A model generated the notes under the pieces. The model saw nothing but the letters and a program-made list of their open reading frames with translations. It was not told the DNA's origin and did not search any database. 64,000 bases of DNA from a virus (lineage: Duplodnaviria > Heunggongvirae > Uroviricota > Caudoviricetes), in IMG/VR virus record IMGVR_UViG_3300025644_000002, one strand, 5' to 3'. The first letter of the stretch is position 1. Every line of letters starts with the position of its first letter. Positions 12,464-62,265 of this stretch are shown here, in pieces. Position numbers and translations under genes: made by a program.

Positions 12464-12474
12464 GGGTATAAGAA
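12464..12474 (+). promoter_or_regulatory. GGGTATAAGAA promoter-like box
   Basis: Copy of the motif ~80 nt upstream of the 12555 gene. Confidence 0.35.
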
Positions 12475-12554
12475 TGATGCGCCAGAGGATACAATGAGAA
12501 AAATCCATGTCTGGCGTTAATTAAACAACTAAATAACGTAAAAGGAGACATAAC

Positions 12555-12761
12555 ATGTCTGATGAACTTAAGGTCGTTGAGACCCCAGAAGTAGGTTATT
12601 TTCGTAAAGCAGTTAATGGTATTAAAGCCGTTGCCTCAAAACCCGCAGTGAAAAACACTGGATTAGTAGTCCTAAGTGTTGCAGCTGGGGCATTTGGATT
12701 ACGAGCCTATGATAATCGCAATACAGACCTTCCATCCTTGGAAGAATCTGCTATCGATTAG
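12555..12761 (+). CDS. hypothetical small protein (68 aa)
   Basis: ORF track; RBS AAAGGAG. Confidence 0.4.
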   Translation: MSDELKVVETPEVGYFRKAVNGIKAVASKPAVKNTGLVVLSVAAGAFGLRAYDNRNTDLPSLEESAID

Positions 12762-12832
12762 TAATTACGTTGTGTAACACGTCAGTTGCACAAAAGGAGA
12801 GTGAAAGCTCTTCTTTTTACCTTAAAAAGCTA

Positions 12833-13165
12833 TTAATTGCTATTATTATCAATATTATTAAAGTTATTTAAGCCATCTAGCTCCATATGATCGAATATAA
12901 GTCTATTATCCTTATAATCTAATGTACTGCCAAGAAGATACATAGCAGTTTCCGAATCCATGGTGTGTGCATAGTCATCATCATACACTATATTTTTAAT
13001 ATCTTTTATGTCTTTATATGTAAAATCGAAGTGTGCCATCTCAGTTTCGTAATTTGGCGCCAACTTTATGTTTAATATGTGGGATTTTGGGTGATTTAAG
13101 CTAATTTTCTTAGTTTCTAACTGTATTGCAGCTGCTTTTGTAATCGAGAGAGGCGAATTGTGCAT
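12833..13165 (-). CDS. hypothetical protein (110 aa), start of the minus-strand late module
   Basis: ORF track; TAA stop. Confidence 0.45.
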   Translation of the reverse strand: MHNSPLSITKAAAIQLETKKISLNHPKSHILNIKLAPNYETEMAHFDFTYKDIKDIKNIVYDDDYAHTMDSETAMYLLGSTLDYKDNRLIFDHMELDGLNNFNNIDNNSN

Positions 13166-13287
13166 TATTTTTATACTGATTTAATACTTTATTCTTCAAA
13201 TTGTCTTTTATAGAGAGACCCCAGTGTATTATCATTGGAATTACCCCCTTTCTTTAATATAGTTAGATTCTAGGTATTATACAAATA

Positions 13288-13755
13288 TTAATTAGCGATA
13301 GTATCAGGTATTATCACTGGTTCAGGCTGAACATTTTCTATTTTTGGTGTATATTTATCTGAATATGGATACCAAGTGTCTGGTATGACCTGAGATAAGA
13401 AAGAGCCTATAACAAATGTCATAACTAGCCAGAATAACCGTGAAACGTTCGTATTAGCTTTTTTGACTAATTTGATCTGGTCTAACGTTTCTTCTTTCTG
13501 TAATTTGCCTACATATACCGTAGCTTCATTCATTTTGTGAATTACGCCGGTTTCAGGATCTAGAAGTCTTCTTTTAATCTCAGACATATCATTCTTAATG
13601 CCCCCAACTGTCTCTTTTAAAGTATCTACATTATCTTCTAATGATTTAAACTTACCGTTAGTAAAAGTCACTAACGTCTTTTCATGCTCATCCACTTTGT
13701 CTCCGATTTTAACGAAAAACTCTTCTCAGCTCATTGGTCCTTTTTTATCAGTCAT
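13288..13755 (-). CDS. membrane-associated structural/assembly protein; N-terminal extension contains an in-frame TGA (13726-13728)
   Basis: ORF track 13288..13695; the same frame stays open upstream through one TGA to an ATG at 13753-13755 that has an AGGAA RBS. Confidence 0.4.
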
Positions 13756-13784
13756 TCTAATATTCCTATTTTATAATGTGGAGA

Positions 13785-14201
13785 CTAAGCTCCAGGGTAT
13801 CCTAACTCTTGTGGGATTGTTATTGCGATTATCTTCGTATCTTCTAAAGCTACTCCAGAATGCATAACCTCATCTTTAAGAATTACGCAGTCTTGATAAG
13901 AATAGATTACGTCATCTACTCCTTCTTGTGTAATTCTTATACTCCCCTTTAATATGATTCCATACTCTACTATTGGATTTTCGTGAGTATGTGGTGGAAA
14001 CTCTGTTCCTTCTGGCAAAGATAATATCATTACTGATCCATCTTCTTCGTTATAAATACTTCGCCCTATAGAATCTGCCCCTGCAGTAGACTCGTACGCC
14101 TTTTCATATACAACCTCGTCTACGCCTTCTTGATCATTCTGGCTAACCACTAATTTCTGCAATGAAGTCATCTGTCGCGCCATATCCCCTAAAGATCTCA
14201 T
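13785..14201 (-). CDS. cupin-like protein (138 aa)
   Basis: FPPHTHENP…E…ILKG resembles the cupin metal-binding motifs; ends TAG. Confidence 0.4.
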   Translation of the reverse strand: MRSLGDMARQMTSLQKLVVSQNDQEGVDEVVYEKAYESTAGADSIGRSIYNEEDGSVMILSLPEGTEFPPHTHENPIVEYGIILKGSIRITQEGVDDVIYSYQDCVILKDEVMHSGVALEDTKIIAITIPQELGYPGA

Positions 14202-14209
14202 AGTATCTC

Positions 14210-15538
14210 CTAATTAGAGTACAGTTTGTTAACGCCCATAAGCAACAGTACTATTTTAGTTACTGAATCCATGGCGTTCTTTACGGCTTCCTCCGGAAGA
14301 TGCCTCATACCTAACCTAGTCATAAGCAGCATTTTGGCTAATTCACTCATAATCATCTCATATTGAGGTAATAGAGCTATGTATTCTATAATATTCTGTT
14401 TGTTGATAGCTCCAAGAGACAATACAGCATCTACAGTGCTTTTATCAGATAAAACCGCAGCCTCTTTTACTAAGTCTACTTTTAACATCTCTATGTCATT
14501 AGTACTATCTTCATAAGTTTCTGCTATTTTATCAATAAACACTTTTGGAGGTATAGGAGCTTCAATTGGACAAGCAATTAGCATTTCAGTGCCTTTCAGC
14601 AACATTGCCGCCTTATTTATATCAGTCTTGGTTGCTCCACAATGAATTAATGATCATTCTGCCTCTGAGAGGCTTAAATCACGTAATTCATGGCTGTTTT
14701 CTGCATATTTAGAGAACTCTGCACCTTTTAAGTAATAAAGGCCTACAGAGTCTTTTCCAACTGTGTGTTTATTTACTTTAACAGTATGTGGTATTTCATT
14801 TTGTAAGTATGATCCTAGCTTAATGAAGCTCACGTCCTTAGATAAATACCAACTAGATTCTTTTTCTACATATTTTGCTTCAGAAGTAGTTGTGTTGTCG
14901 ATGTAATAAGATACTTTTTCTCTTCCGGCCCATCCTGTAACTTTTAATGGGGTATCTTGATTATCCTCGCTAACTTCAGAAACTTTTCTTAATTCTTTGC
15001 CTAATTTAACAAACTTTGCTTCTTTAGGTAGTAACTTTCCGCCATTCTCTGAGTCCATCAGACTCTTAACAGGCATTTCAGTCAGGTAATACGCAATCTT
15101 CTGCAATCCATCCCAACCTGCTACTTGTACTTGTTTATTGCTAGAAGCTTCTAAGTCTTGTAATAGTTCTCTAATCTCAAAAGGCTTAGTGGCACTGCCA
15201 TCAGGCATAACTCACGCTCCGAAATCTCCTATTTTAGGAAAATCTCCGTCTATTTCTACATTTTCTGAAGACTTTTGTCCTAATTTCTCTAAAATAACCC
15301 AATCTTTATTCTTACTGATGCTAAGATACCCTGGACCTCCGTCTAGTTTATAAAGATTTGAAGAATATGACGATACTTTGTCCATTCCTAGTACTTCAAA
15401 AGGTTCAGAGACTGATTCTCCAAATTTTCAAACGCCAAGATCACCAACTTGTGGTTGGTCTTCTTCTAAAGTAAATGCTTCAGCCGTTTTCACATCATTT
15501 CTACTAAAATCATGATAATCTTTGTCCGATGTTACCAT
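14210..15538 (-). CDS. structural (baseplate/tail) protein, ~442 aa, with three in-frame TGA codons (15428-30, 15212-14, 14654-56)
   Basis: ORFs 14654..15208 and 14210..14605 plus the upstream frame form one continuous frame broken only by TGA; ends TAG at 14210-12. Confidence 0.55.
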
Positions 15539-15650
15539 AAGGTGTCTATCAGTGTCCCAAATCTTGTAGCAATTAGCATCTACAGACTCAGCAGTCTTTT
15601 CTTGGAAACTTGAAGCAGTTAATATCTCAAATTCTTCAGCTTCTGAAGCC

Positions 15651-16387
15651 TTAATAGGGAGTTCTCATACAAAATCTATGTTAGAATTAGCTTGTTTAAC
15701 TGTGTGATTACCTAAAGAGTCTTTAATAACTAACTGTCTATCTATATCAAGGTCCCTAATGAAAGAATCCACGATTTCTTCTTGACTCTCTGTTTTTGAC
15801 GCTAGTTTGTCTAAAACGTCTAATCTTCCGGTCTTTTTGAAGTTATTATGGATTTCTGGGTTGTTTTTAACAGTATTTAGTATTTCAACAACGGCTTTTT
15901 TGTCTATATGCTCAATTTTGTCAATAAATGAAGCTATTTTAGCAGGTCGTTCTTGTGAACTAGACTCGCTAGCTGAATTGTTTATACTCCCATCAGGAGA
16001 ATACTGTAATTGTGAGAACATGTCCAGTCCTGATTTAGGAGGAGACGACGCTACTCCTACAAATGCTCCTGGCGAAGTTAACATAGTTCTTAACACCTCA
16101 GTATTAAGTGGTAAAGTTCTTCCACCTGCCATAACTATGTCTAAAGGAGATAATTTCCAATCTTTGATTACTACTGGTATGGATGCCCCGGATATCTTTA
16201 ATACCCCTACCGCATATCCCTTTGTACTATCTTTTTTCTTCCACTGAACCACTGCAGGCTGATTTTGAGCGAACGGATATTGTTCGTAAAAATACGTAAT
16301 TACATTTCTAACCCACTTCGTTGCGTCCATATCCACTGAGTATGACGCTGTTTTAGTAAAAGAGTTCTTTATAAATAAGTTGTCCAT
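15651..16387 (-). CDS. structural protein (~240 aa); frame ends at TGA 15666-68, then ELPY, then TAA 15651-53
   Basis: ORF track 15665..16399; ATG at 16385-87 with a TGGAGA RBS. Confidence 0.5.
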
Positions 16388-16467
16388 TATTATCTCCAAT
16401 TAATCACTAACTTTGTTTCTTCTAACATTTCAATATAACTAAGCTTAGGTTTTTAGTCAAGTATTAT

Positions 16468-17010
16468 CTACGTTATAGTCCATACTACTGTAAGTACTAC
16501 ACCACTTGCCGACGTTCCTGTCATTTGAAACTTTATTTGTTTTACATAGTTATGGATACTAGTTGCCAAGTCTTCACAAAAGATCTCCACAGTTTGGGCT
16601 ATTAACTCTGCATTGCTGCTACCTCATGTGGGTGTTATAAAGGGTATTATTGGTCCTACAGGAGTATAAGTTATAAATCCTACTGCTGTAGGTACTAATG
16701 TAGTAGCTTCCGCTAGTAAATCTTCATCAGATATACCTCTAGACCCTGAAATCTCCGCCAATGGGTTAGATATAAAAGTTAAAGATACATCAACCTCTGG
16801 TCATTCGGGTATAGTTATTTCTACATTAGAAAAGTTTGTAGTGATTCCAGTAACTCCTACTACAGCCTCGCTCATATATTCACTAATAATCTCCCCTAAC
16901 CTGATGCTTTTTTCATCAACTGTATAAGCTATTCGGTTATCGCCTTCTAAATAATAATACTTATAAAACTCCGCGATTAGCTCAGTCTTTAAATTAGTTT
17001 CACTTAACAT
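16468..17010 (-). CDS. structural protein, 180 aa, with two in-frame TGA codons (16801-03, 16624-26)
   Basis: ORF 16801..17010 continues in the same frame through two TGAs to TAG at 16468-70; the start overlaps the upstream TAA as TAATG. Confidence 0.5.
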
Positions 17011-18569
17011 TATTCTGATAAAGTCTTCACAGTATAAATATTCTCATCCAAAGGATCATAAATACTTGGCTGAATTATTGGAGGTGACGAAGGTCCCACT
17101 CCTGTACCATGTGTATGTCCCGCGTATAATTCTGTAACAAACTCTTTAGTAACTAACGTCTGACCCTCTGAGCCTCCGAGATACACATTTTTACCTTCAG
17201 GCACGTCAAGAGTTATTCCGCTGCTATCCAAAGTTATAGTAAGAGTAGTATCTCCTAGATTCAGTTTAACAGTGTATGCCTCATTATTTAACGTCTTTGT
17301 CAATTTCAACTCTGGAGTTGCAACATCCCCGGACTGCACTGTTGTCTTTAATATATCTGTACCGCCAAACTCTTTAGTATACATTTTACCATTAGTTGTG
17401 GTTTCTAGCTGATGGATGTGTCTTCCTCATATTCTACCCGTGTTTAACTTGCCAAAACTACTTACATATTGCTGTTTAATTCCGGTGTTGATAAAAGTAT
17501 AATCGTAACCTTGCCCAGCTTTCCAGGCTGTAGCATCAAAAGTTCCATCATATATTTGATGTCTATATAACTCTCCCGCTAAACTCCCGGACTCTAATTT
17601 CCCAAATCTATTTATCATTGAGCTATTATTATTTGTTACTGCTCGTTTAAATACCCAATGAAATAAAGAACCTGCCGGGTGTTCTTCTCCTATATCAAAT
17701 AGATCTGTAGCCCCTTGATACCCTAGATGTAACTTAGTATAGGTATTCTTCTGTTTAGAACCTCCAGTAGCTTGTCTAGTCTCTAATTGATACAAATGGG
17801 AATAAGGCGTGCCTTTTAAATTCTTAACATGAGGTATGTATCCAGACTTTATAATAGTTTGATCTGTGAATTGGTGCTTGAAAGGAATACTGCGGTGAGT
17901 CTCAGTGTTTTCTGAGATATGGTCAAGATACCCAGTAGTATCATCAAACTTTGAATATACTTCTAAATGTGATGTAGCTCCTTTATCTATTCCTGCAGAT
18001 TTCTTAGGATGATATGAGTCTCTAACAAAATTAGTTGCGCTTCGTCTTTCATATCGTTTAGTTGTAATATTTAGTTTCTTATAAGCTCCATCCAAAGTTA
18101 TTTCAGCGAAGGCGTTAGAAAACCAACTAAAGAATCCATCTGGAGCCATTAGGAAGTTAGTTTTGTTCTTTCCACCTATTTTTAATAACACTCCCCCCTC
18201 TGGTACAGCTTCTGCAGATAAACCGCCGAAGGCCGAAGATAGTCCTGAGGGGATATAAGTAAGAATCTGTGCAACATTATTTCATTTGTCCAAGGCCACC
18301 AAACACTCCTGATTTTCAGGAGGCACTGATACTACTCCCGACCCAAATGCAGAAGTTGGTATAAATATCGGAGGTAACGCCAAATACGTCTTCTCAGGAT
18401 CTGTCTCATCTATTGCCTGAATATATATGTCTTTTTTATCTAGGGCGTTTACATCAGGACTCTCTACTGAAACTACCCTAGCTCTAAATACTTCATAATT
18501 TCTTTCCATACTTGAATATAACCCAATGTCTTTTAAAAAACAATATTTTCTGGTATAAGAATTTCGCAA
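17010..18569 (-). CDS. baseplate central spike protein, gp5/VgrG-like (OB-fold N-terminus), ~519 aa, with two in-frame TGA codons (18282-84, 17427-29)
   Basis: Three track ORFs (18282..18569, 17427..18191, 17010..17384) are co-linear in one frame, separated only by single TGAs. The N-terminus (ALPPIFIPTSAFGSGVVSVPPENQECLVALDK*NNVAQIL) aligns with the T4 gp5 OB-fold (PTTSAGKGMGGVFSLPRVGTEVLVSFLDGDPNRPIIL). An alternative ATG start lies at 18507-09. Confidence 0.6.
18552..18563 (+). promoter_or_regulatory. TGGTATAAGAAT promoter-like box facing the 18.6-19.7 kb non-coding region
   Basis: Same box as the early promoters, on the plus strand; no plus-strand ORF follows. Confidence 0.35.
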
Positions 18570-18589
18570 TCAAGGCTTAGCCTTAATTA

Positions 18590-19690
18590 GCACCTGGGTG
18601 GTATGACATCCAGTTAAAGATAACCCCAGCAATGGGACTAAAAGCAGTCGGGTCTGTGAAATTATACCTGGCATTGCGTTGTTCTCCTTCGGGAGTGCAA
18701 ACATTTATACACTGCGAACTTCTATTTATCTTGTAAAAAATAGTCCAACACTCCAGGCTAACTGCGAGGCGTGAAGGTCGAGATACGTATCCCCTGAGGG
18801 GTAGGCAGAAATGTCTGTATAGTAATCGCAAGATATCCTGTCTGTCAAGCGGGTTATCAATTATATAGTTTGTCGGGATCAAGATATTGAGGCCTTCATT
18901 GGCTTCTAAGTCAAGAAGAGACAACTACTATGATGAAGGATCGGAGGCTGTCATGGCTAATGACTTACGAGGGCGAGTGGCATTATGTGGCTGAAAACTA
19001 CGTAACCACAACCGGGAACGCGTCCTCCCAATCACAGAAAAACCATAATGTAGCTCAGTTGGTAGAGCAACGGAATATTAATCCGTAGATCACGAGTTCG
19101 ATTCTCGTCATTTATAATGAAAGCAATTAGATTCCTGGCTGCTTATAATAAAAGATCACTAATATCGGCCTGTATAACGTCGAGCTCTGCGCCTCGCAAG
19201 GGTTGCAGCAGTATTTATAAGGAAGCGGTTAAGCTTGGCGGCAGCTAAGATAGTCGTGAAATTGTAGAGTTAATGTAAGTGGAAAGACCTGGCTCCATAC
19301 CTGGAGCTGTGATTGGTGTATTACGACGACGTAAGTCTGCGTGGAAACGAGGGGAATTGAAATGATCCCTTTAAAGATATACCGTACTAACTGTATTCTC
19401 AGGAAAAGTACAAACTTCATAAAACTGGGCCAAAGACGTAATAAAAACGTTGGGTGTCTATCCGAAGGAGTTGCAAGGCTAGAGCCTTCAATTTGGAAAA
19501 GAATTTAAGATAGGGCTTCCTACTTAACGTAGGTGGTGCGGGGATTAATAAGTCTCGCAAAGGGAGTTGCATCCCTCGGAAGAAGAGTTTACCCCTCAGC
19601 CACTCTCATCTTCCATAAAAAGAATACCAGGAAAGCCACCTGAAAAATTGGCCTTACGCCCGTGCACTCTGTGCCATCTTACAAGCGTAT
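18590..19690 (+). ncRNA. Candidate structured non-coding RNA region (~1.1 kb, hairpin-rich, higher GC)
   Basis: No ORF of 60 aa or longer on the plus strand. Hairpins include CTCC-TTCG-GGAG (UUCG tetraloop), GCTCCA-tacc-TGGAGC and GGGA…TCCC. A promoter box lies upstream and a tRNA-like gene is embedded. Confidence 0.35.
19044..19116 (+). tRNA. tRNA-like gene with canonical D and T arms, anticodon loop ATATTAA (formal anticodon AUU) and an imperfect acceptor stem
   Basis: GTAGCTCAGTTGGTAGAGC D-arm, ACGGA/TCCGT anticodon stem, ACGAG-TTCGATT-CTCGT T-arm; acceptor pairs poorly. Confidence 0.35.
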
Positions 19691-19691
19691 T

Positions 19692-19724
19692 CTTTTTTTT
19701 ACCTTAAATTTGTAGGTATAAGAC
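19692..19724 (+). promoter_or_regulatory. T-run + ACCTTAAATTTGTAGGTATAAGAC cassette
   Basis: Variant copy of the motif. Confidence 0.4.
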
Positions 19725-19766
19725 CTATGACAATATTTAACCCTATAACATTATTTAATAAATACC

Positions 19767-19778
19767 GGTATAAGAATA
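19767..19778 (+). promoter_or_regulatory. CGGTATAAGAAT promoter-like box upstream of the 19803 gene
   Basis: Copy of the motif. Confidence 0.4.
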
Positions 19779-19802
19779 CTGGAATACACAGGAGACCCAT
19801 CA

Positions 19803-19988
19803 TTGACTAAATTCGATTTAAACAATCTCTTCGATAAAGAGGTTGTGTTCAAAATTAATAAAGCCTTACGTTCTACAAAATCAAACAAAGAACTAGAACT
19901 AAAAGTTATTATCTCTAAATACATGAAACAATTACCTAAAGACGTAAGCTTATCTGATTTTGCTAAATATCTTATCGAAACTAATTAA
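19803..19988 (+). CDS. hypothetical small protein (61 aa)
   Basis: ORF track. Confidence 0.4.
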   Translation: MTKFDLNNLFDKEVVFKINKALRSTKSNKELELKVIISKYMKQLPKDVSLSDFAKYLIETN

Positions 19989-20007: not shown

Positions 20008-20694
20008 ATGCTTAAAACTATTACAGACAAATTAACATATGAACTTGCTAAAGAATATATGTCCCTGCAACATAGAATGGGGGACATACATACTCCAGTT
20101 ATTATACAGAGAACTATATTCGGCGATGTTTCGATAGGGTATGTGTTGTCTACAGGAAAATACACAGCTTATTCTCGTAGCTATACAGGCTTACCTCCTA
20201 CCAAAACGATTCACCATTATGAGTTTCCAGAAGAATTAAAGCCTACAGTGTTAAGTAAAAGTGGTACAGCAATTTACGCAGCTTTTAGAAATCATTTTTT
20301 AGTGTATCATCATGAACTTTCCGATTATATATATATTTCCAAAAACTTGATACGTAAGATAGGCCTTCCTACTAAAGTACTGGTACCCTGCGAAGGTGAT
20401 GTTATATTATTTGAAGATACCCCACATACTATAAATTATGTAACTCTTCAAGAAAATAATAATCTTTTCAATTATTCTATAGCCACCACTCGGGGCTACG
20501 ATCGTGAGGTATCTATGAGCTTTGTAAATTCTTGTGAATTTTTACAAACCAAAAGACCACCTCGATTGTTCGGGTATCACGCCAGATTTACTAATGAGGG
20601 TTCTCAGTCCCGGATTGTTCAAATTGGATGTCATAGGATCACTAAATCCTTGTGGGACGTGTTACTTGAATCCGCCAACAACGATTATTTTTAA
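20008..20694 (+). CDS. paralog family B member 1
   Basis: Shared motifs: YxFPEEL.P.VL…NLIRKIGLP.KV..PCEGD…CEFLQ…P.RLFGY…GC……LW..LL. Confidence 0.5.
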   Translation: MLKTITDKLTYELAKEYMSLQHRMGDIHTPVIIQRTIFGDVSIGYVLSTGKYTAYSRSYTGLPPTKTIHHYEFPEELKPTVLSKSGTAIYAAFRNHFLVYHHELSDYIYISKNLIRKIGLPTKVLVPCEGDVILFEDTPHTINYVTLQENNNLFNYSIATTRGYDREVSMSFVNSCEFLQTKRPPRLFGYHARFTNEGSQSRIVQIGCHRITKSLWDVLLESANNDYF

Positions 20695-20715
20695 ACTATT
20701 AAAAAAGGAATAAAT

Positions 20716-21432
20716 ATGCTACAACATATTATTAACAAATATCATCTATCCTTAGTACAAGCTTATCTGCATTTATATGACGAAGTTCTGAGCGGATACA
20801 ACACTTTTAAACTTAAAGACATCTCAATACAGCGAACTCAGGAGGGTGCTGTGTTTATGTGGTTCTCTAAACCCGGCTTCCCTATGAATCAACAACTGCC
20901 TTATAGAACCTGGCACTCAACTCATATAGGGGACCTCGCGCCCATCAAAAAGCTAAAAACTTACACATACCCTGAACACCTCATACCTAACATTATTTAT
21001 GATAAGGATGGAACAAACGATTATATTGTTGCCGACATAGGAGAAGCCTACTTATTACTACACGGAGATGAAATCTGGGTATTTACAAAAAACCTCATTA
21101 GAAAAATACGACGAAGCGACCACACCAACCAACCCTGTGAAGGTGACGTAGTAAGAACTAAAACTGGTGAGATGGTTATGATCTTGGACGCCTGCATAGC
21201 GGGTAATAAACTAATGATGAGATGTACTAGAATAGTAGATGATTATGAAATAGGCATAGAGTACACAGACCTATTAGATTGTGAGTTTTTACAAGACCCT
21301 ACTCCCAAATTTCTATTTGGTAGTAATTGTACAACTTACAATAAAGAAAGAAATGCTATATCAAATGTAGGTTGCCAAGATATTGACCCCAAATTATGGG
21401 ACTTACTTCTAAAAAACGCAATGAAAGGATAA
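20716..21432 (+). CDS. paralog family B member 2
   Basis: Same motifs. Confidence 0.5.
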   Translation: MLQHIINKYHLSLVQAYLHLYDEVLSGYNTFKLKDISIQRTQEGAVFMWFSKPGFPMNQQLPYRTWHSTHIGDLAPIKKLKTYTYPEHLIPNIIYDKDGTNDYIVADIGEAYLLLHGDEIWVFTKNLIRKIRRSDHTNQPCEGDVVRTKTGEMVMILDACIAGNKLMMRCTRIVDDYEIGIEYTDLLDCEFLQDPTPKFLFGSNCTTYNKERNAISNVGCQDIDPKLWDLLLKNAMKG

Positions 21433-21433
21433 C

Positions 21434-22255
21434 ATGAATCTCAAAGACCATCCCCAAATAGCTAATCTAGCAGTAGAAGACTATATGTCAAGGCTCTATT
21501 ATCTTATGTCTAGTCAGCAAAGCATTGACGAGTTAATAGGTCATCTACGAATATGTACTGATATCAATAATAATGTTGTAACAGTAATGCAACAAGACAG
21601 CGTATCTGTAGACACTCCTCATCTATTACTATATAGCTCAGGAGCTAAATTATCTCACTCAGCCTTTAATATATACTACCCCAGAGAGTTAGTACCTAAA
21701 GTGTTGTTCAGCTCTAAAGACTTTGTGTTTGCAATGTTGAAAGGTGCATTTATAGTATATTCTGCTACAGATGCTCGATCAATTATGTTTTCTAAAGATC
21801 TTATAAGAAAGCTATACAACCCCTCAAAAGTTACAACTCCTTGTGAAGGTGATATTGTTCAAATACCTGGAAATGTTGGAAATGACGAGCTATGTGTAAT
21901 AATCGATAGCGCTCTGGACTCTTATTTAGAGCCAATATTTCGAATACACTCCTTAAAAAACTACAGCGATGAGTATGAGAACGAGACTCACCTAATTCCG
22001 GGTAAGAGCACATTCTTCTATCCAGGGTTCAACTACAAACACCTACAAGACCCAAAACCTCAAAGGCTTTTCGGATACAACATAAGATACAGAGAAAACG
22101 GTACCATCAGAAAACTAGGATGTATGAACTTACCTGAAGCAGCCTGGCGTGGGTTAGCTCACATAGCTAACAAACAAGATTCAGTAACTTATGAGTCAGT
22201 CTATGTACCTTGTGCTGAAGATTTAGTATCAAAAGCAGACACCACAACCAAATAA
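21434..22255 (+). CDS. paralog family B member 3
   Basis: Same motifs. Confidence 0.5.
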   Translation: MNLKDHPQIANLAVEDYMSRLYYLMSSQQSIDELIGHLRICTDINNNVVTVMQQDSVSVDTPHLLLYSSGAKLSHSAFNIYYPRELVPKVLFSSKDFVFAMLKGAFIVYSATDARSIMFSKDLIRKLYNPSKVTTPCEGDIVQIPGNVGNDELCVIIDSALDSYLEPIFRIHSLKNYSDEYENETHLIPGKSTFFYPGFNYKHLQDPKPQRLFGYNIRYRENGTIRKLGCMNLPEAAWRGLAHIANKQDSVTYESVYVPCAEDLVSKADTTTK

Positions 22256-31541: not shown

Positions 31542-32465
31542 ATGAACAAAGCGCTAGGCATTTTAATAGCTATAGTCGTTGTAGTGCTCTGGGGTACATT
31601 CTCAGCTGCATACACGCTAGACGCTAATGAACAAGCAGTCGTGCTCCGTTTGGGGAAGTACAATAGTACTACCGCTGTTGGAGGACTACAATTTAAGATT
31701 CCGTTCGGGATTGATGAAGCATACAAAGTGAGAACTGAGTATGAATATAAAGCCGAATTTGGATTTAGAACTGTATCTGCTGGTAAAAATACCAACTACA
31801 ACAAAAGCGGATTCGTCGAAGAATCAGAAATGCTGACAGGGGATTTAAATATTGTGTACCTACAATGGGTTGTACAATATAAGATTAATGATCCTTATCA
31901 GTATTTGTTTGCCACTAGAAACCCTGAAGAGCTCTTGCGAGACGGTTCGGAAAGTGTAATGCGTTTAATGGTAGGGGATCGCTCCTTCTATGAAGTATTA
32001 CAAAAAGATCGTGTAGCTATAGCCAATACGGCCAAGACTCACCTGCAGGATATGCTAACATTATATGAATGCGGCATTATCGTAGAGTTGGTTCAGTTGA
32101 AAACTGTTGATCCACCTCCGCTAGTTCAGGCTGCCTTTAAAGAAGTAAATTCTGCTGAGCAAACGCAGGAGACTACTATTAATGAGGCCAGGGAAGACTA
32201 CACCAAGCAGGTAACAGAAACTGAAGGTGAAGCGGCAAGACTGGTTGAGGAAGCAAATGGTTATGCTATCGAAAGAGTTAACGAAGCTAAAGGTAACACA
32301 GCTTGGTTTACTGCAGTATATAATGAGTATAAAGTAAATCCTAAGGTAACTAAGGACCGTTTATATTTTGAAACAATGCAGAAAATTCTACCGACAGCAG
32401 AAAACGTTTGGTTTATTGATGAAAACATTTCAGCACTACCACACTTTAATTTGGGAGGCAACTAG
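31542..32465 (+). CDS. hflK: HflK-like SPFH/band-7 protein
   Basis: N-terminal TM helix, QAVVLRLGKY…FKIPFGIDE…, long coiled-coil; typical HflK layout. Confidence 0.65.
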   Translation: MNKALGILIAIVVVVLWGTFSAAYTLDANEQAVVLRLGKYNSTTAVGGLQFKIPFGIDEAYKVRTEYEYKAEFGFRTVSAGKNTNYNKSGFVEESEMLTGDLNIVYLQWVVQYKINDPYQYLFATRNPEELLRDGSESVMRLMVGDRSFYEVLQKDRVAIANTAKTHLQDMLTLYECGIIVELVQLKTVDPPPLVQAAFKEVNSAEQTQETTINEAREDYTKQVTETEGEAARLVEEANGYAIERVNEAKGNTAWFTAVYNEYKVNPKVTKDRLYFETMQKILPTAENVWFIDENISALPHFNLGGN

Positions 32466-32467
32466 TT

Positions 32468-33427
32468 ATGGAATTGACAGTTAAAAAAGGGGCTTTCATA
32501 TTCCTCTTTATGTTCCTGCTTTTTGGATTCTTTAGCGGTTTATACGTTATCGATGAAAAAGAACAAGTGGTGATTACTCAGTTTGGTAAAATTCGCGGCG
32601 AAGCGATTACTGACGCAGGGGTTCACCTGAAGATTCCTTACATTCAGAATAAGCATGTTTATGACAAACGTATTCTGGAATGGGATGGGGATGCCGAAGA
32701 ATTACCTACAAAAGATAATAAATATGTCTTTATTGATGTATTTGCCAGATGGAGAATTAGTGATCCTCAGGAATATCATAAAGCTGTAGGTGGTCGTGAA
32801 AACCAGGCACAATCTCGAATTGATGATGTAATAGATGGTAGCTCACGTGACATAATTGCTGAGCATGTAATGTCTCAAATTGTACGGTCTAGTAATCGGG
32901 AGATGGTGTTACGTTCGCAGGAAACCTCAGATACAAATACTGAAGATCAGGGCACCGAGTCCAGCTTCATGCAACCAGGAATCCGAGACGAAATTGTGGC
33001 TAAAATCCTGGCAATGGCTCAATCAAAACTAGCCGAACGTAAATTAGGAATCGAAATTATAGACGTTCAGCTGAAACGGGTAAATTTTACCAATGTAGTC
33101 AAGAAAAAGATACAGGATAGAATGGTTTCAGAGCAGTCACGAATTGCTCAGAAATATCGCGCCCAGGGGCAGAAAGAGAGACAGGAATTAGCTGGAAGAC
33201 GAAATAACAAAATAAAAAATCTAATGTCTGAGGCTTATAATGAGTCTGAGATGATTAAAGGTACAGCTGATGCAACAGCTACCAAGATCTACGCAGAAGC
33301 TTATGGCGCAGATCCAGACTTTTATAATTTTGTGAAATCGTTGGAAACGTTGGAGAAAGCGGTAACACCGTCGACCAACATAATGATGACCAGCAGAAAT
33401 GGTGTCTTAAAAGTATTGTTTGAATAG
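32468..33427 (+). CDS. hflC: HflC-like SPFH/band-7 protein
   Basis: EQVVITQFGKI…HLKIPYIQ…, immediately downstream of the HflK homolog. Confidence 0.65.
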   Translation: MELTVKKGAFIFLFMFLLFGFFSGLYVIDEKEQVVITQFGKIRGEAITDAGVHLKIPYIQNKHVYDKRILEWDGDAEELPTKDNKYVFIDVFARWRISDPQEYHKAVGGRENQAQSRIDDVIDGSSRDIIAEHVMSQIVRSSNREMVLRSQETSDTNTEDQGTESSFMQPGIRDEIVAKILAMAQSKLAERKLGIEIIDVQLKRVNFTNVVKKKIQDRMVSEQSRIAQKYRAQGQKERQELAGRRNNKIKNLMSEAYNESEMIKGTADATATKIYAEAYGADPDFYNFVKSLETLEKAVTPSTNIMMTSRNGVLKVLFE

Positions 33428-34772: not shown

Positions 34773-34845
34773 TGTAACGTAGCTCAATTGGTGGAGCGCT
34801 GCACTGTTAATGCAGTGGTTGCGAGTTCGAGTCTCGTCGTTACAG
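34773..34845 (+). tRNA. tRNA-Asn (GTT)
   Basis: Acceptor TGTAACG/CGTTACA is perfect; anticodon loop CTGTTAA. Confidence 0.7.
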
Positions 34846-34864
34846 CAATCAAAAAAGGAAACCT

Positions 34865-38202: not shown

Positions 38203-39276
38203 ATGAATACAGTCCTAACAGTTTTAGAAACCCAAATAAAGGAAGGGTGGGTAAAGCGAAGAAAACATCCAGAGTTTCCACTTTGGATATATAATTATAC
38301 CCATGCCACACAGTATGCTCGAAATTGGAACGATACCACTACTAGATGTAGGGGTCTTATACTAGATGAATATGGAACTGTAGTAGCCAACCCTTTTAGA
38401 AAATTTTTCAACTATACAGAATTAGAAGGACTAGGTATCGAGCTCCCAGATGACCACTACAGCATTTTTAATAAACTAGACGGATGTCTATTTATAATGG
38501 TTATGTGGAGGGGGCATTTAATTAAATCTACAAGAGGCTCTTTTGATAATGAATATATTACAGAGGCCAATGTAGTCTTAGAAGAAAAATACCCTGACCT
38601 TACTATAAGGGAGGACTTCACATACTGCTATGAGTTCTTAACACCTACTCTTAAGAAAGGGGGGATGACCTGTATCACCTACCCAGAGAGCGACCTAAGG
38701 CTATTGGCAGTACGCGATACGTTTACTGGCAGAGAGATAGGGTTGCACGCTGTTACTACTTGTATACCAAGAACAGAGCTATATGAACATGATTGCGATG
38801 TAAGTGAGTTATATAATGTACCAAATCAAGAAAACAAAGAAGGATTTGTGTTAGCATATGATAACGGGTTCAGAGTTAAAGTAAAATTTGACTGGTATGT
38901 AAGACATCACCGTATATTGCAGCTTTGCAATGATAAAACGGTATGGAAATACTTATCAGATCCAGAATTAGATATACAAGAGTTAATTGATATTGTACCA
39001 GATGAATACTATAAATGGCTTCATACCTCTATAGATAACTTTAGAGAGAATTATGTGATATTAGCAAACACTGCTTGTAAACAATACATGCACCTTATAA
39101 CTAGTTTCCCAGAATCAATTGATATGAAAAAACGAACTTCCAAAGCAGTAGCAGAAAAAGTCATAAATATTGGAAATAAACAAATAATTTCTTTAGTATT
39201 TACAATGTTACAAGGGAAAAACATAAAGCCCTTAATTTGGAAATATTTAAAACCAAAACAAACGGAGAAAAAATGA
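38203..39276 (+). CDS. rnlA: RNA ligase 1 (T4 RnlA-like)
   Basis: Motif I FNKLDGCL; EGFVLAYDNGFRVKVKFDWYVRHH ~ T4 Rnl1 [24 protein letters not shown]. Confidence 0.65.
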   Translation: MNTVLTVLETQIKEGWVKRRKHPEFPLWIYNYTHATQYARNWNDTTTRCRGLILDEYGTVVANPFRKFFNYTELEGLGIELPDDHYSIFNKLDGCLFIMVMWRGHLIKSTRGSFDNEYITEANVVLEEKYPDLTIREDFTYCYEFLTPTLKKGGMTCITYPESDLRLLAVRDTFTGREIGLHAVTTCIPRTELYEHDCDVSELYNVPNQENKEGFVLAYDNGFRVKVKFDWYVRHHRILQLCNDKTVWKYLSDPELDIQELIDIVPDEYYKWLHTSIDNFRENYVILANTACKQYMHLITSFPESIDMKKRTSKAVAEKVINIGNKQIISLVFTMLQGKNIKPLIWKYLKPKQTEKK

Positions 39277-39437
39277 AAAATCCCGGATTCATACTATTTA
39301 TAGTATTACTTGTCCTAAAGTTAGTTGGAGTCATTACATGGAGTTGGTGGTGGATAACTGCCCCGCTGTGGCTTGGCTTCGTCTTATTATTTTTAGCTGT
39401 AGGCGGTATAGCTGCAATTGCAAGTTGGCTCGATTAG
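39237..39437 (+). CDS. small membrane protein
   Basis: ORF track; two TM helices. Confidence 0.4.
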   Translation: MEIFKTKTNGEKMKNPGFILFIVLLVLKLVGVITWSWWWITAPLWLGFVLLFLAVGGIAAIASWLD

Positions 39438-39939
39438 ATATTTACTAATACTACTCACAAATATATGTTTATGCGTTGGAGCCTTACCTGAGGAATGGAA
39501 AGCTTTAACAAGCCATCAACAAGAATCAATACGGGCATCCTATGAATATGGGGTGCCCTTTGATTTAGGGTGGACATTAGCTGCTATTGAGTGGCAAGAA
39601 TCTGCAGGAGGTAAATACCTTGTAAATTTGCAAGACCCTTCCGCAGGAGCTCACCATATCAATATCAACACATATATGAGTAGACATAGAGATGAGATAG
39701 AGGACACACCCTTTAATAGGAATGTAGTGGCCCAATGGCTCATAGATAGTCACATACTTAGTTGTAGAGAAGCAATAACTGAACTAACCTATTGGAAGAA
39801 TGAGAGACATAATGGTAGCTGGTCCAAAACTGTAAGATCCTACAGGGCGGGCAATCGCTGGGAGTCTCCAGCAGGTTGGCAATATTATAAAAGTATAACA
39901 GCCAGAATAAACTTTTTAAAACAAGAATGGAAATTATAA
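39418..39939 (+). CDS. hypothetical protein (173 aa)
   Basis: ORF track. Confidence 0.45.
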   Translation: MQVGSIRYLLILLTNICLCVGALPEEWKALTSHQQESIRASYEYGVPFDLGWTLAAIEWQESAGGKYLVNLQDPSAGAHHININTYMSRHRDEIEDTPFNRNVVAQWLIDSHILSCREAITELTYWKNERHNGSWSKTVRSYRAGNRWESPAGWQYYKSITARINFLKQEWKL

Positions 39940-39940
39940 A

Positions 39941-41005
39941 ATGAGACATTTAGCAACAATCCAACTCATAGCTAATTTAGAGCCTATCTCTGGAGCAGAT
40001 GTAATTGAAAAAGCAACTGTAAAAGGCTGGCATCTAGTAGTTAAGAAGGGGGAATTTCAAATAGGTGATAAATGCGTCTACTTTGAAGTGGACTCTTTGT
40101 TGCCAGAAATAGAGCCGTTTGAATTCTTAAAGAAAAACGGTGTCAAAACAATAGATGACGGCACAAGAGGTTATCGCTTACGAACTATAAAATTGCGTAA
40201 GCAAATTAGTCAAGGGCTAGCCATGCCATTAGATACTTTCGAAGAGCTCGCCGATGGCCCCGAAGTGGGAACAGACGTAAGTGAACTTTTGAAAGTAGTA
40301 AAATATGAAGCACCCATTCCAGCATGCTTAAGTGGCCAGATTAAAGGCCACAGACCTTCCTGGATTCCTAAGACGGATGAAGAACGTGTACAGAATCTTG
40401 TAGATGAAATAAAAGAATGGGCAGGAACAGAGTGCTACATAACAGAGAAATTAGATGGATCGTCATCTACCTTTTATTATGCACCTAACTACCGAAAAGC
40501 AACACCTTTCGGAGTATGCAGTCGGAAGCTTGACCTAATAGAGAATGACAAAAATTCTTTCTGGAAAGTCGCTAGAGATATTGACGCAGAAGAGAAAATG
40601 TCTAAACTTGGTATAAATGTAATTTTCCAAGGAGAATTACTGGGGCCAGGGATTCAGAAAAATAAATACAAATTGTCTGCTACAGAAGTAAAAATGTTTA
40701 ACGCTTTTACTATACAAGATGGTGGCTTTGGAAGTATTGAGAGCTTTCTAAATCTTATATTTGGGGACTACACAACTGAGGGGGAAGTTCGCGTACGAGG
40801 GTTAGATAGAATATTTAATACTGTACCTGTCCTTAATCCAAAGATGGTGTTAAACCATACAGTAGACGAATTAGTAGAGCTTTCTAAAGGCCCAAGCCTT
40901 CTAAATCCTGATATCCCAAGAGAGGGAATTGTGATTAGAGCGAGAGATGGTAGCTTTAGTTTTAAAGTAATTAACCCTGACTTCTTAATTAAGTTTGGAG
41001 AATAA
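39941..41005 (+). CDS. rnlB: RNA ligase 2-like nucleotidyltransferase (Rnl2 family) with an extra N-terminal domain
   Basis: Motif I TEKLDGSS; FQGELLGPGIQKNKYKL ~ T4 Rnl2 FGEFAGPGIQKNVDY; motifs EGIVIR and SFKVINPDF. Confidence 0.6.
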   Translation: MRHLATIQLIANLEPISGADVIEKATVKGWHLVVKKGEFQIGDKCVYFEVDSLLPEIEPFEFLKKNGVKTIDDGTRGYRLRTIKLRKQISQGLAMPLDTFEELADGPEVGTDVSELLKVVKYEAPIPACLSGQIKGHRPSWIPKTDEERVQNLVDEIKEWAGTECYITEKLDGSSSTFYYAPNYRKATPFGVCSRKLDLIENDKNSFWKVARDIDAEEKMSKLGINVIFQGELLGPGIQKNKYKLSATEVKMFNAFTIQDGGFGSIESFLNLIFGDYTTEGEVRVRGLDRIFNTVPVLNPKMVLNHTVDELVELSKGPSLLNPDIPREGIVIRARDGSFSFKVINPDFLIKFGE

Positions 41006-41389
41006 ATGAAAAGTAACCAGCTTTTAAAAACACTGAAAGATGGCGATATAGTATTAATGGTGCTTCCTGGGTTATATGAGCCTTCAGTGTTAGAGATATG
41101 CCAACTCAAAAATACTAAATTCATTCCAAAGGGTGAGGGGCGCTCTTTCGACTGGTTAGACTTTGACTCTGACACTTTGTATGTAAATACTCGCGTACAT
41201 AGTTCACAGTTAGGTGAATCAGCTGGAAACTGTTTGTCAATAACAGAAGTGATAGCTCCCGAGCATCTTGAACAATTTGCACGAAATAAAGATATGTGGA
41301 AAGCATCTTTATACCAATACTCTGACGTTGAGTACAAACACGCCCAGAGTACGGCGGAGAGTTCTATAAAGTTATGGGATAGAGACTAA
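41006..41389 (+). CDS. hypothetical protein (127 aa)
   Basis: ORF track. Confidence 0.45.
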   Translation: MKSNQLLKTLKDGDIVLMVLPGLYEPSVLEICQLKNTKFIPKGEGRSFDWLDFDSDTLYVNTRVHSSQLGESAGNCLSITEVIAPEHLEQFARNKDMWKASLYQYSDVEYKHAQSTAESSIKLWDRD

Positions 41390-41413
41390 GCCATAAATAA
41401 AAGGAAATACAAA

Positions 41414-42328
41414 ATGAGACAAGTAATAATACTACGGGGGTTACCCGCAAGCGGTAAGACTTCGTATGCCGTAGATATGATGGATAAAATGCCAGATACA
41501 TACAAACGTGTAAATAGGGATAGTCTACGAAGCATGGTTGATGGTGGAGTATACTCTAAAGGAAATGAGAAAATAATTAAAGCAATTAGAGACTCTTTAA
41601 TCTTTAGATACTTAGATGCCGGAAGATCAGTATTCGTAGATGATACAAACTTACACAGCTCAAATGAGGAGCATATTAGAAAAATAGTGGCGGACTATAA
41701 CATTTTACGGGAAGTTAAGCACGACGTATTAGTTGTGGTTAGAGAATTCCCTACAGATGTATTTGATGCCATTGATCGAGACGCATTACGTACAGGATCG
41801 GCCCATGTAGGCTCTAAAGTTATTTATGATATGTACAGTAGGTTTCTAAAGAAAGATGAGCCTCACGACTATCCTGAGCCTCCAGGCACGGTTGAGTTGG
41901 TAGACGGCTTACCTAAGGCAATCATTTGTGACTTAGACGGCACGATGGCATTCCTTAAAGGCCGTAACCCTTATGACGCCTCTACTTGTGAGAACGATAC
42001 TTACAATGCGATTTTGGGGGAAATTCTTCACGTTATGGACAAACAGGGATACCAAATAATCTTTTTATCTGGAAGATCGGAAAAATACCTTTCAGAAACT
42101 AGACAGTTTTTGAAAGCAAACCTTCCGTTTCCTCATTGGAAGATGTTCATGAGACCATTGTTTGAGCATAATATAAGAGATTCAATTCTTAAACGCAAAC
42201 TTTATGATGAACACGTTAAAGATAAATACAACGTATTTTGCGTGTTTGATGATAGAGACCAAGTAGTTGGTCTATGGCGTAAAGACTTAGGTCTACAATG
42301 TTTCCAAGTAAACTACGGAAACTTCTAA
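41414..42328 (+). CDS. pnk: polynucleotide kinase / 3'-phosphatase (T4 Pnk-like)
   Basis: N-terminal P-loop GLPASGKTS; C-terminal HAD motif ICDLDGT. Confidence 0.65.
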   Translation: MRQVIILRGLPASGKTSYAVDMMDKMPDTYKRVNRDSLRSMVDGGVYSKGNEKIIKAIRDSLIFRYLDAGRSVFVDDTNLHSSNEEHIRKIVADYNILREVKHDVLVVVREFPTDVFDAIDRDALRTGSAHVGSKVIYDMYSRFLKKDEPHDYPEPPGTVELVDGLPKAIICDLDGTMAFLKGRNPYDASTCENDTYNAILGEILHVMDKQGYQIIFLSGRSEKYLSETRQFLKANLPFPHWKMFMRPLFEHNIRDSILKRKLYDEHVKDKYNVFCVFDDRDQVVGLWRKDLGLQCFQVNYGNF

Positions 42329-49031: not shown

Positions 49032-49103
49032 GCCGTGGTCGTCTAATGGTAAGACGCTCTTAGTCCGCTAAGAGAAATGGAGGTTCAACTCCTTCCCTAG
49101 GCT
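49032..49103 (+). tRNA. tRNA-like gene with a non-canonical anticodon arm (CTCTT-AGTCCGCT-AAGAG, 8-nt loop, or a 6-bp stem with 6-nt loop)
   Basis: D-arm TCGTCTAATGGTAAGACG, T-arm GGAGG-TTCAACT-CCTTC, acceptor GCCGTGG/CCTAGGC with 2 mismatches. Confidence 0.35.
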
Positions 49104-49112
49104 CTAATTTAT

Positions 49113-52135: not shown

Positions 52136-52429
52136 ATGGAGAGGAAACAGATGTTTAAATTAAAAGTAGATGACGTTATAACGGTACGAGCTAGTACTGG
52201 CGAAGACCACATTCCGTCATACTGGACACAACGTAGGTGGGCAATAACTAAAGTTAGTCCCACTAAAATAGACGTTCAAGGATACGATAACTACGGTTGG
52301 AGAAAGATAGCAGAAAGACACTTTTTATTGAAAGACTATGCTATCGAGCGTTGTATAATAGAGGTGGTTGACGGTTCTTCCAGCCTAACCGTATTACGTA
52401 CAATACACTCTGGAAAGGATACCAAATAA
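52136..52429 (+). CDS. hypothetical protein (97 aa)
   Basis: ORF track. Confidence 0.4.
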   Translation: MERKQMFKLKVDDVITVRASTGEDHIPSYWTQRRWAITKVSPTKIDVQGYDNYGWRKIAERHFLLKDYAIERCIIEVVDGSSSLTVLRTIHSGKDTK

Positions 52430-62185: not shown

Positions 62186-62261
62186 GGCTGGGTAGCTCAA
62201 TTGGATAGAGCGGGGGACTCTAAATCCCTGTCAGCTACAGGTTCGAGCCCTGTCCCGGCCA
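62186..62261 (+). tRNA. putative amber suppressor tRNA (anticodon CUA, loop CTCTAAA)
   Basis: Hand fold: acceptor GGCTGGG/CCCGGCC (1 GU pair), D-arm TAGCTCAATTGGATAGAGC, anticodon stem GGGGA/TCCCT, U33 present, T-arm ACAGG-TTCGAGC-CCTGT. Confidence 0.65.
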
Positions 62262-62265
62262 CAAT

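Follow-up and report, generated by a model that had tools for sequence, protein, structure and literature searches.

Comparative sequence analysis points to a divergent GOLLD-family RNA with a tRNA-shaped linker module in a large marine phage

Introduction

The RNA described here very probably belongs to the GOLLD family (Rfam RF02032; Weinberg et al., 2009). It lies at positions 18594–19405 (plus strand) of a 64,000-nucleotide (nt) stretch of DNA from a Caudoviricetes virus (IMG/VR record IMGVR_UViG_3300025644_000002), hereafter the window, and measures about 810 nt, with a tethered module shaped like a transfer RNA (tRNA) in its linker. The phage contigs that carry it are at least 139–212 kb long and come from marine metagenomes.

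GOLLD is a giant non-coding RNA of phages that assembles into hollow cages. GOLLD RNAs occur in phages near tRNA islands and combine a conserved 3' domain with a variable 5' domain (PMC12286853). Kissing loops and A-minor bridges (L20-J13/15, L21a/L21b) are the published contacts between subunits. Cryo-electron microscopy (cryo-EM) resolved the env-38 GOLLD as a 14-mer (PDB 9MEE; Kretsch et al., 2025; PMC12286853), in which the linker is disordered and located inside the cage; in some GOLLDs this linker bears a tRNA (PMC12286853; PMC12990946). The GOLLD of S. agalactiae, a 12-mer (PDB 9L0R), lacks P9, P11a-c and P21b and still forms a cage (PMC12990946). In GOLLDs of Mycolicibacterium/Mycobacterium a tRNA or pseudo-tRNA occupies the J13/15 linker (PMC6582537; PMC12990946). 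A pseudo-tRNA inside a mycobacterial GOLLD is reported to have yielded no separate transcript (PMC6582537), and a recent review has put forward the suggestion of "inhibited storage" (PMC12990946).

Results

A full-length match to the GOLLD 3' domain

An initial reading of the window from its letters alone (the original prediction) had singled out positions 18552–19724 as a gene-free, hairpin-rich region between the late module and a plus-strand block that could encode one or more structured RNAs (a ribozyme, intron remnant or regulatory RNA) or else serve as the late-gene control region, and had called for an Infernal/Rfam scan. That scan settled the identity of the region as GOLLD. In a permissive search of 18300–19900, RF02032 aligned with 18968–19405 on the plus strand across model positions 1–416 of 416, with 124.8 bits and an E-value of 4.6e-34. 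The structured-RNA option was therefore right in kind, with the RNA being a GOLLD and not a ribozyme, an intron remnant or a regulatory leader. At E-values up to 10 the same interval returned only GOLLD, tRNA and one noise match (E 6.4), with no match to group I or group II introns. A default Rfam scan at gathering thresholds reports tRNAs only and misses the GOLLD copy, the family's cut-off of 150 bits being a curation threshold and not a biological feature. The features of the conserved part are as follows.

18968–19405, plus strand: conserved GOLLD 3' domain, defined by the full-length match to Rfam RF02032
19029–19139, plus strand: variable linker (J13/15 in the published numbering), placed by the Rfam model alignment
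19044–19116, plus strand: tRNA-like module of the Asn type with anticodon AUU, matched by the Rfam tRNA model (RF00005) and inserted in the A/U-rich linker
19291–19308, plus strand: hairpin GGCUCCA-UACC-UGGAGCU, read from the sequence, a helix of the GOLLD 3' domain

Parsing of the alignment showed that 74 of the 98 consensus pairs of RF02032 are present as standard pairs, with 12 mismatched and 12 deleted. The domain opens with its first long hairpin at 18968–19028. In GOLLD 3' domains a long-range helix closes the central multi-helix region; in the window RNA it pairs 19140–19149 with 19272–19281, and nine of its ten pairs are maintained through bases unlike those of the consensus. As in other GOLLDs, the first hairpin is followed by a variable linker whose end is marked by the conserved AAAGCAA, found here at 19120–19126 just downstream of the tRNA-like module. 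The 3'-terminal motif GUGGAAACGAGGGGAA...AAAGA...UGUAUUCUCAG, at 19341–19402, belongs to the type seen at the env-38 3' terminus, and the form GUGGAAAC...UGUAUUCUCAG is the same in both RNAs.

The window RNA thus resembles env-38 and the RF02032 model in a 3' domain that is matched end to end with most helices kept, and GOLLDs generally in its overall length, its two domains and a phage host rich in tRNA genes. It differs from the RF02032 consensus in lacking one hairpin of the central three-way region, and from env-38 in its 73-nt tRNA-like insert, of which env-38 has none. The S. agalactiae GOLLD provides a precedent for a trimmed variant, although we do not equate the hairpin lost here with any P-numbered helix, the env-38 sequence available for the numbering covering 816 of its 833 nt. 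ROOL, the other phage nanocage RNA, shares with the window RNA a phage habitat near tRNA genes and the idea of cage formation, yet its sequence and fold are unrelated; Rfam returned no match to ROOL, either across the window with gathering thresholds or in 18300–19900 at E-values up to 10.

Coding content and base composition are those expected from the original prediction. It had stated that the plus strand holds no open reading frame (ORF) of 60 amino acids (aa) or more, and the longest within 18570–19800 is indeed 55 aa (19341–19508), followed by one of 52 aa (18930–19088). The minus strand has ORFs of 113 aa (18583–18924) and 63 aa (19229–19420). None of the region's small ORFs matched Pfam or PHROG with an E-value better than 0.06, and an identical public contig in ENA carries no gene calls across the region. 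The raised content of guanine and cytosine (GC) is likewise real, at 0.43–0.46 over 18600–19500 versus 0.29–0.39 on the flanks.

A 5' domain recognizable only at its start

Upstream of the Rfam match, the window retains the beginning of a GOLLD 5' domain, followed by a longer portion of distinct sequence.

18594–18694, plus strand: recognizable start of the GOLLD 5' domain, located by covariance models R2 and R3
18594–18613, plus strand: P1 hairpin CUGGGUG-GUAUGA-CAUCCAG, in the 5' domain start
Between P1 and the GNRA hairpin, plus strand: junction UUAAAGAUAAC, in the 5' domain start
18625–18636, plus strand: GNRA hairpin CCCA-GCAA-UGGG, in the 5' domain start
Between the GNRA hairpin and the long hairpin, plus strand: ACUAAAAG, in the 5' domain start
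18644–18677, plus strand: long hairpin, in the 5' domain start
18684–18695, plus strand: UUCG hairpin CUCC-UUCG-GGAG, read from the sequence
18695–18967, plus strand: rest of the presumed 5' domain

Comparison material came from degenerate motif scans of IMG/VR and a metagenome collection, through which about 320 loci were fetched, most of them GOLLD. GOLLD 5' domains measure about 300–420 nt, varying between subtypes. Those sampled fall into several types that share a common architecture, in which a P1 hairpin, UUARGAUAA, a GNRA hairpin of 4–5 base pairs (bp), NCNAAAG and a further stem follow one another. A 27-nt block of the window, AGATAACCCCAGCAATGGGACTAAAAG, also occurs in canonical GOLLDs.

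Three covariance models (R1, R2 and R3) were built without the window sequence. R2, made from the first 213 positions of 18 type-B GOLLD 5' domains, gave its top match in the window at 18593–18694 (27 bits, E about 5e-8), covering model positions 1–96 only. The motif used to retrieve the type-B loci came from the window's own 5' stretch, which introduces a circularity. R3 was built for this reason, from the 5' starts of 32 type-C loci that were fished with a tRNA-plus-linker pattern independent of the 5' motif. Its top match, at 18594–18669 (16.5 bits, E about 0.003), falls in the same place. Each of the two matches ranks first in 128 kb of searched sequence.

The 3' end of this recognizable part is straddled by the UUCG hairpin. 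The sequence beyond, 18695–18967, was assigned to the RNA because of its position, its raised GC content and the absence of ORFs. R1 and positions 97–212 of R2, the later two thirds of the type-B domain, found no match in this interval, even in a restricted search, and profile hidden Markov models of 43 type-C and 42 env-38-like 5' domains found nothing there. Profile models of the type-B, type-C and env-38-like 5' domains detected only short common motifs. The z-score of the minimum free energy (MFE) of 18566–18967 is −2.18, indicating somewhat better folding than that of shuffled sequences. A 19-nt complementarity between 18763–18781 and 19180–19198 was considered and dropped, being at chance level for two stretches of 400 nt.

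A tRNA-shaped module with a degenerate acceptor stem

The insert in the linker scores 58.7 bits on RF00005 against a cut-off of 29 (19044/19045–19116), and every element that the original prediction had described at 19044–19116, comprising D and T arms, the anticodon loop AUAUUAA and a weak acceptor stem, was confirmed. The tRNA shape accordingly stands; the separate tRNA gene that had been proposed does not, the element being a module within the GOLLD linker. Its D stem (GCUC/GAGC), anticodon stem (ACGGA/UCCGU) and T stem (ACGAG/CUCGU) are perfect, its T loop is standard, and its 7-nt anticodon loop contains U33, A37 and the anticodon AUU. With the D, anticodon and T arms retained, the tRNA elbow is retained as well.

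The other end of the molecule is of a different quality. The acceptor stem has four of seven pairs in strict register, or six with a 1-nt bulged U, and a single G-C pair; the discriminator is A73, the first anticodon position is A34 and no CCA is encoded. The 21 window tRNAs that were measured have 5–7 acceptor pairs with 3–6 G-C pairs, and the module falls short of them. The window's own tRNA-Asn(GUU), at 34773–34846, has seven of seven acceptor pairs, G34 and G73. ARAGORN did not call the module, even with lowered thresholds. In E. coli, asparaginyl-tRNA synthetase (AsnRS) identity requires G34 and G73, so a molecule with A34 and A73 is unlikely to be charged with asparagine. Since the acceptor stem is degenerate and A/U-rich, with A34, A73 and no CCA, we take the module to be a permanently tethered tRNA mimic, or pseudo-tRNA, and not a tRNA that would be released and charged.

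Weak acceptor stems are a class feature of embedded tRNAs

The position of the module is shared with other members of the family. A tRNA shape stands directly upstream of AAAGCAA in the Mycolicibacterium/Mycobacterium GOLLD, in four further GOLLDs scoring 194–216 bits (L097, L103, L073 and L082) and in about 60 metagenome loci. The embedded element of L097, a 360-kb viral contig, is a tRNA-Asn(AUU) at 926–998 with the same odd anticodon as the window module. L103 (524–595) and L077 embed tRNA-Asn(GUU), L073 (2206–2276) embeds tRNA-His(AUG), and L082 (10349–10422) has an embedded tRNA with anticodon UUA. In 5' sequence these relatives differ from the window RNA, in which the type-C 5' domain of tRNA-bearing GOLLDs is absent beyond the first ~70 nt.

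A further 60 GOLLD-type loci came from the metagenome scan. ARAGORN called the embedded element in 39 of them (30 distinct sequences) and, as with the window module, failed in the other 21. On average the 30 distinct embedded tRNAs form 5.5 of 7 acceptor pairs, with 1.27 G-C pairs, and none encodes CCA (0/30). For the 318 distinct free-standing tRNAs of the same loci the averages are 6.87 of 7 and 4.33, respectively, and 304 encode CCA. The acceptor differences between the two groups are highly significant (Mann-Whitney p 2.5e-24 and 1.4e-18). Because embedded tRNAs are systematically weak at the acceptor, the poor stem of the window module, A/U-rich and followed by no encoded CCA as in other tRNA-bearing GOLLDs, is a feature of its class. 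The existence of such a class is consistent, as judged from these comparisons, with the mycobacterial pseudo-tRNA report and with the suggestion of inhibited storage. A rule whereby embedded elements would be A34 variants of queuosine-family tRNAs (Asn AUU, His AUG) was also considered and dropped, the 30 embedded anticodons being diverse.

A different arrangement was observed in IMG/VR loci of the env-38-like type. In seven of these (L137, L159, L161, L174, L197, L200 and L203), a tRNA-Met(CAU) begins 13–30 nt after the GOLLD 3' end; a Met-tRNA also adjoins the env-38 GOLLD (PMC12286853).

Promoter boxes and the probable ends of the transcription unit

The promoter box reported by the original prediction at 18552 is one of ten exact plus-strand copies of a repeated motif. 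The boxes, together with the features found at the two ends of the unit, are listed below.

774, 1580, 4512, 4804, 5115, 12465, 18552, 19715, 19767 and 30009, plus strand: exact copies of GGTATAAGA
18550–18562, plus strand: promoter box TGGTATAAGAAT, an instance of the repeated box that points into the RNA gene
18572–18584, plus strand: leader hairpin AAGGC-UUA-GCCUU, read from the sequence, preceding P1
19406–19700, plus strand: 3' trailer of about 295 nt, between the GOLLD 3' end and the T8 run
19456/19552, plus strand: 20-nt imperfect direct repeat in the trailer
19475–19488, plus strand: trailer hairpin AAGGC-UAGA-GCCUU
19561–19576, plus strand: hairpin (A)GGGA-GUUGCAU-UCCC(U), read from the sequence, in the trailer
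19617–19627/19687–19697, plus strand: 11-bp stem of the trailer, just before and into the T8 run
19693–19700, plus strand: T8 run, part of a T-run/ACCTTAAA cassette
19715–19723 and 19767–19775, plus strand: two promoter boxes of the downstream plus-strand block, outside the RNA gene

The ten copies of GGTATAAGA in the window, all on the plus strand, compare with 0.94 expected, and no shuffle reached ten. Copies typically lie ~35–55 nt upstream of a start codon, and the motif often closes a cassette in which a terminator hairpin, a T-run, ACCTTAAAAAG and GGTATAAGA follow one another. On these grounds of number, orientation and placement, GGTATAAGA is a real, repeated signal of the promoter type. 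From the box at 18552, transcription would start at about 18566–18568. The minus-strand block at 13288–18569 must use another class of promoter, because GGTATAAGA has no minus-strand copy. A second ORF-poor stretch that follows a GGTATAAGA box (12466–13287) was examined as a candidate non-coding RNA and rejected, since it contains a gene of 68 aa that has a ribosome-binding site, as well as an ORF of 110 aa on the minus strand.

At the other end, canonical GOLLDs have a terminator ~50–70 nt past their 3' end, whereas the window copy has none before the T8 run at 19693–19700. The T-run/ACCTTAAA cassette at this point resembles those that follow other genes of the same phage, and no promoter box occurs between 18552 and 19715. 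We infer that the trailer is co-transcribed with the GOLLD RNA. Within 19406–19700 we found no Rfam match, no similarity to the ~320 fetched loci and no supported ORF, and the MFE z-score of the trailer (−0.92) is unremarkable. The three small hairpins on which the original prediction had drawn are all present, at 18684–18695, 19291–19308 and 19561–19576; as parts of the RNA, the UUCG hairpin belongs to the 5' domain and GGCUCCA/UGGAGCU to the 3' domain of GOLLD, and the third falls in the trailer. The proposal of a late-gene control region similarly holds at the edges only, where the boxes and the T-run are found, and fails for the 1.1 kb between them, which is occupied by the RNA gene.

The leader and trailer can also pair with each other. 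Positions 18562–18591 and 19470–19499 form an interrupted helix of ~20 bp (−22.9 kcal/mol) that is an alternative to the local hairpins and is also part of the MFE structure computed for the entire region. Its energy was reached by 11 of 1000 shuffles and by 7 of 544 genomic windows (empirical p about 0.01). Sixteen type-B GOLLDs lack a leader-trailer closing stem; a general GOLLD feature of this kind was accordingly dropped, and the helix is only suggestive of a possible processing stem, idiosyncratic to the window copy.

An isolated lineage

Eight canonical GOLLDs score 300–325 bits on the Rfam model, and complete tRNA-bearing GOLLDs 194–216 bits. Outside family-wide motifs, none of the ~320 fetched loci is like the window RNA at the sequence level, and single-sequence nhmmer searches of these loci with the 5' domain, the 3' domain and the trailer returned nothing significant. 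A blastn search set for distant matches, run with the region against 50,697 phage records, matched the tRNA body only, and IMG/VR scans with a 31-mer of the 3' domain and with a flanking 254-aa protein came back empty. The same phage genome is present again in assemblies of ENA, JGI (Saanich Inlet, 200 m), MGnify and NCBI, the HAWL17 sample being another of its sources, and its lineage is otherwise unsampled. Other contigs of this phage are 99.9–100% identical to the window, and the lineage consequently offers no covariation. Judged by the RNA ligase, which is 45% identical, the phage record closest to it in the collection is an uncultured megaphage of 735 kb.

The 254-aa protein (240 aa as called) is encoded next to the RNA gene, at 17427–18191 on the minus strand. 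It has no homologue but itself among 5.8 billion clustered proteins and no PHROG or Pfam match, and a tblastn search against phages found nothing.

Gene neighbourhood

The window contains 22 tRNA genes, the nearest of them 14 kb from the RNA gene. It also encodes an RNA-repair set made up of an Rnl1-type RNA ligase, an RNA ligase with a PHA02142 OB fold and a PNKP kinase-phosphatase, which fits a large phage defending its tRNA pool. This set, a nicotinate phosphoribosyltransferase and two SPFH/Band-7 genes are distributed over 38203–42328, 52429–53574 and 31542–33427, all on the plus strand. Two tRNAs of the window are unusual: one at 62186–62262 (plus strand) has the anticodon CUA, of the amber-suppressor type (labelled "Pyl" by ARAGORN), and one at 49032–49104 (plus strand) has an abnormal anticodon loop (a 2-nt "cc" call by ARAGORN). 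Three tandem paralogues of 228, 238 and 273 aa, with common "LIRKI...PCEGD" motifs and no Pfam or PHROG match, occupy 20008–22255 on the plus strand.

Discussion

Divergent member or decaying remnant

Several observations weigh against assigning 18594–19405 to the GOLLD family. The score of 124.8 bits is below the gathering cut-off and far below the 194–325 bits of the other GOLLDs scored, making the window copy the most divergent among them. The consensus structure has lost a 4-bp hairpin, a second hairpin is shorter than expected and 12 pairs are mismatched; within the presumed 5' domain, about 270 nt (18695–18967) match no sampled GOLLD; the 295-nt trailer is without counterpart in other GOLLDs; and relatives of intermediate divergence were sought and none was found.

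The lowest GOLLD score, the lost hairpin and mismatched pairs, the largely unrecognizable 5' domain and the degenerate acceptor stem could all be explained if the region were a decaying remnant that no longer produces a functional cage-forming RNA, its tRNA-like piece being a dead tRNA gene. We consider such decay improbable. Many of the 74 pairs kept out of 98 are maintained by two-sided departures from the consensus, as in the long-range helix, and neutral decay would not preserve them. GC content still exceeds that of the flanks by 6–15 points across the whole unit, and a phage promoter box is in place. The weak acceptor stem is no sign of decay, such stems being the rule among the embedded tRNAs of high-scoring GOLLDs, and the 5' domain varies between GOLLDs in any case (PMC12286853).

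Less probable still is a free-standing, odd tRNA-Asn(AUU) situated in a regulatory intergenic region between the divergent late and plus-strand blocks. The element does score well on the tRNA model, the region is flanked by promoter boxes and a T-run, and the minus-strand block on the left needs a promoter somewhere to the right of 18509. Against this, the element sits exactly in the linker of a GOLLD match with an E-value of 4.6e-34 and is rejected by ARAGORN; its A34 and A73 conflict with the G34/G73 identity of E. coli AsnRS, in a phage that already has a normal tRNA-Asn(GUU) with G73; and promoters and terminators would explain less than 100 nt of the 1.17 kb. Least probable of all is a missed protein-coding sequence, such as the 113-aa minus-strand ORF (18583–18924) or the small ORFs of the trailer, because the minus-strand ORFs of 113 aa and 63 aa, although they exist, both overlap the plus-strand GOLLD (the former in its 5' domain, the latter in the Rfam-matched domain), and the region lacks both Pfam/PHROG support and public gene calls.

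We therefore retain the reading of this region as a GOLLD-family RNA. The copy is a sub-threshold and unusually divergent addition to a known family, and not a novel type of element. GOLLD itself is already published, as are the variability of its 5' domain, its association with phages and tRNA genes, and the tRNAs or pseudo-tRNAs embedded in it. Modestly new are the outlier 5' "cap" domain and the trailer, together with the numbers that show embedded tRNAs to be an acceptor-crippled, CCA-less class.

A possible phage RNA compartment

In the model that we favour, the GGTATAAGA box at 18552 would probably drive a primary transcript of ~1.13 kb that extends to the T-run at 19693–19700. By analogy with the published cryo-EM structures, this RNA may fold into the 5' cap domain and a 3' "ring" domain and may self-assemble, free of protein, into a closed, dihedral, homo-oligomeric cage of ~10–14 copies, with the linker and its tRNA-shaped module pointing into the lumen. 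The number of subunits may vary within this range: a natural GOLLD that lacks several helices is a 12-mer and not a 14-mer, and the window RNA lacks one consensus hairpin and has a different cap. The statistics on acceptor stems and CCA suggest that the module would stay tethered and would not mature to a tRNA. As a working model, the RNA may thus constitute a phage compartment tied to the tRNA economy of the phage; the neighbourhood, with its 22 tRNAs, two RNA ligases and PNKP, is consistent with such a role and does not define one.

A bolder proposal, to which we assign a low probability, is that the tRNA shapes in GOLLD linkers are no tRNA genes and form a distinct, selected class of tethered mimics, which retain the elbow and the anticodon arm, have deliberately crippled acceptors and always lack CCA. 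Displayed at ~10–14 per cage, they could bind or sequester a factor that recognizes tRNA, and the window RNA would represent a new GOLLD subtype. If so, the factor bound by the mimics could be an anticodon nuclease, a modification enzyme or another tRNA-binding protein, and the subtype would have its own cap domain, possibly another cage stoichiometry, and a leader-trailer stem for processing.

For the family as a whole, the window copy shows that divergent GOLLDs of large marine phages escape detection at the default thresholds of Rfam, and that a tRNA-like gene whose acceptor stem is bad can, beside an A-rich linker, flag a GOLLD. An outlier in which the 3' ring is conserved and most of the cap is replaced helps to ask which parts of the RNA set the geometry of the cage. 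The statistics on embedded tRNAs are perhaps the most useful result, as they make the earlier remarks on pseudo-tRNAs and inhibited storage testable.

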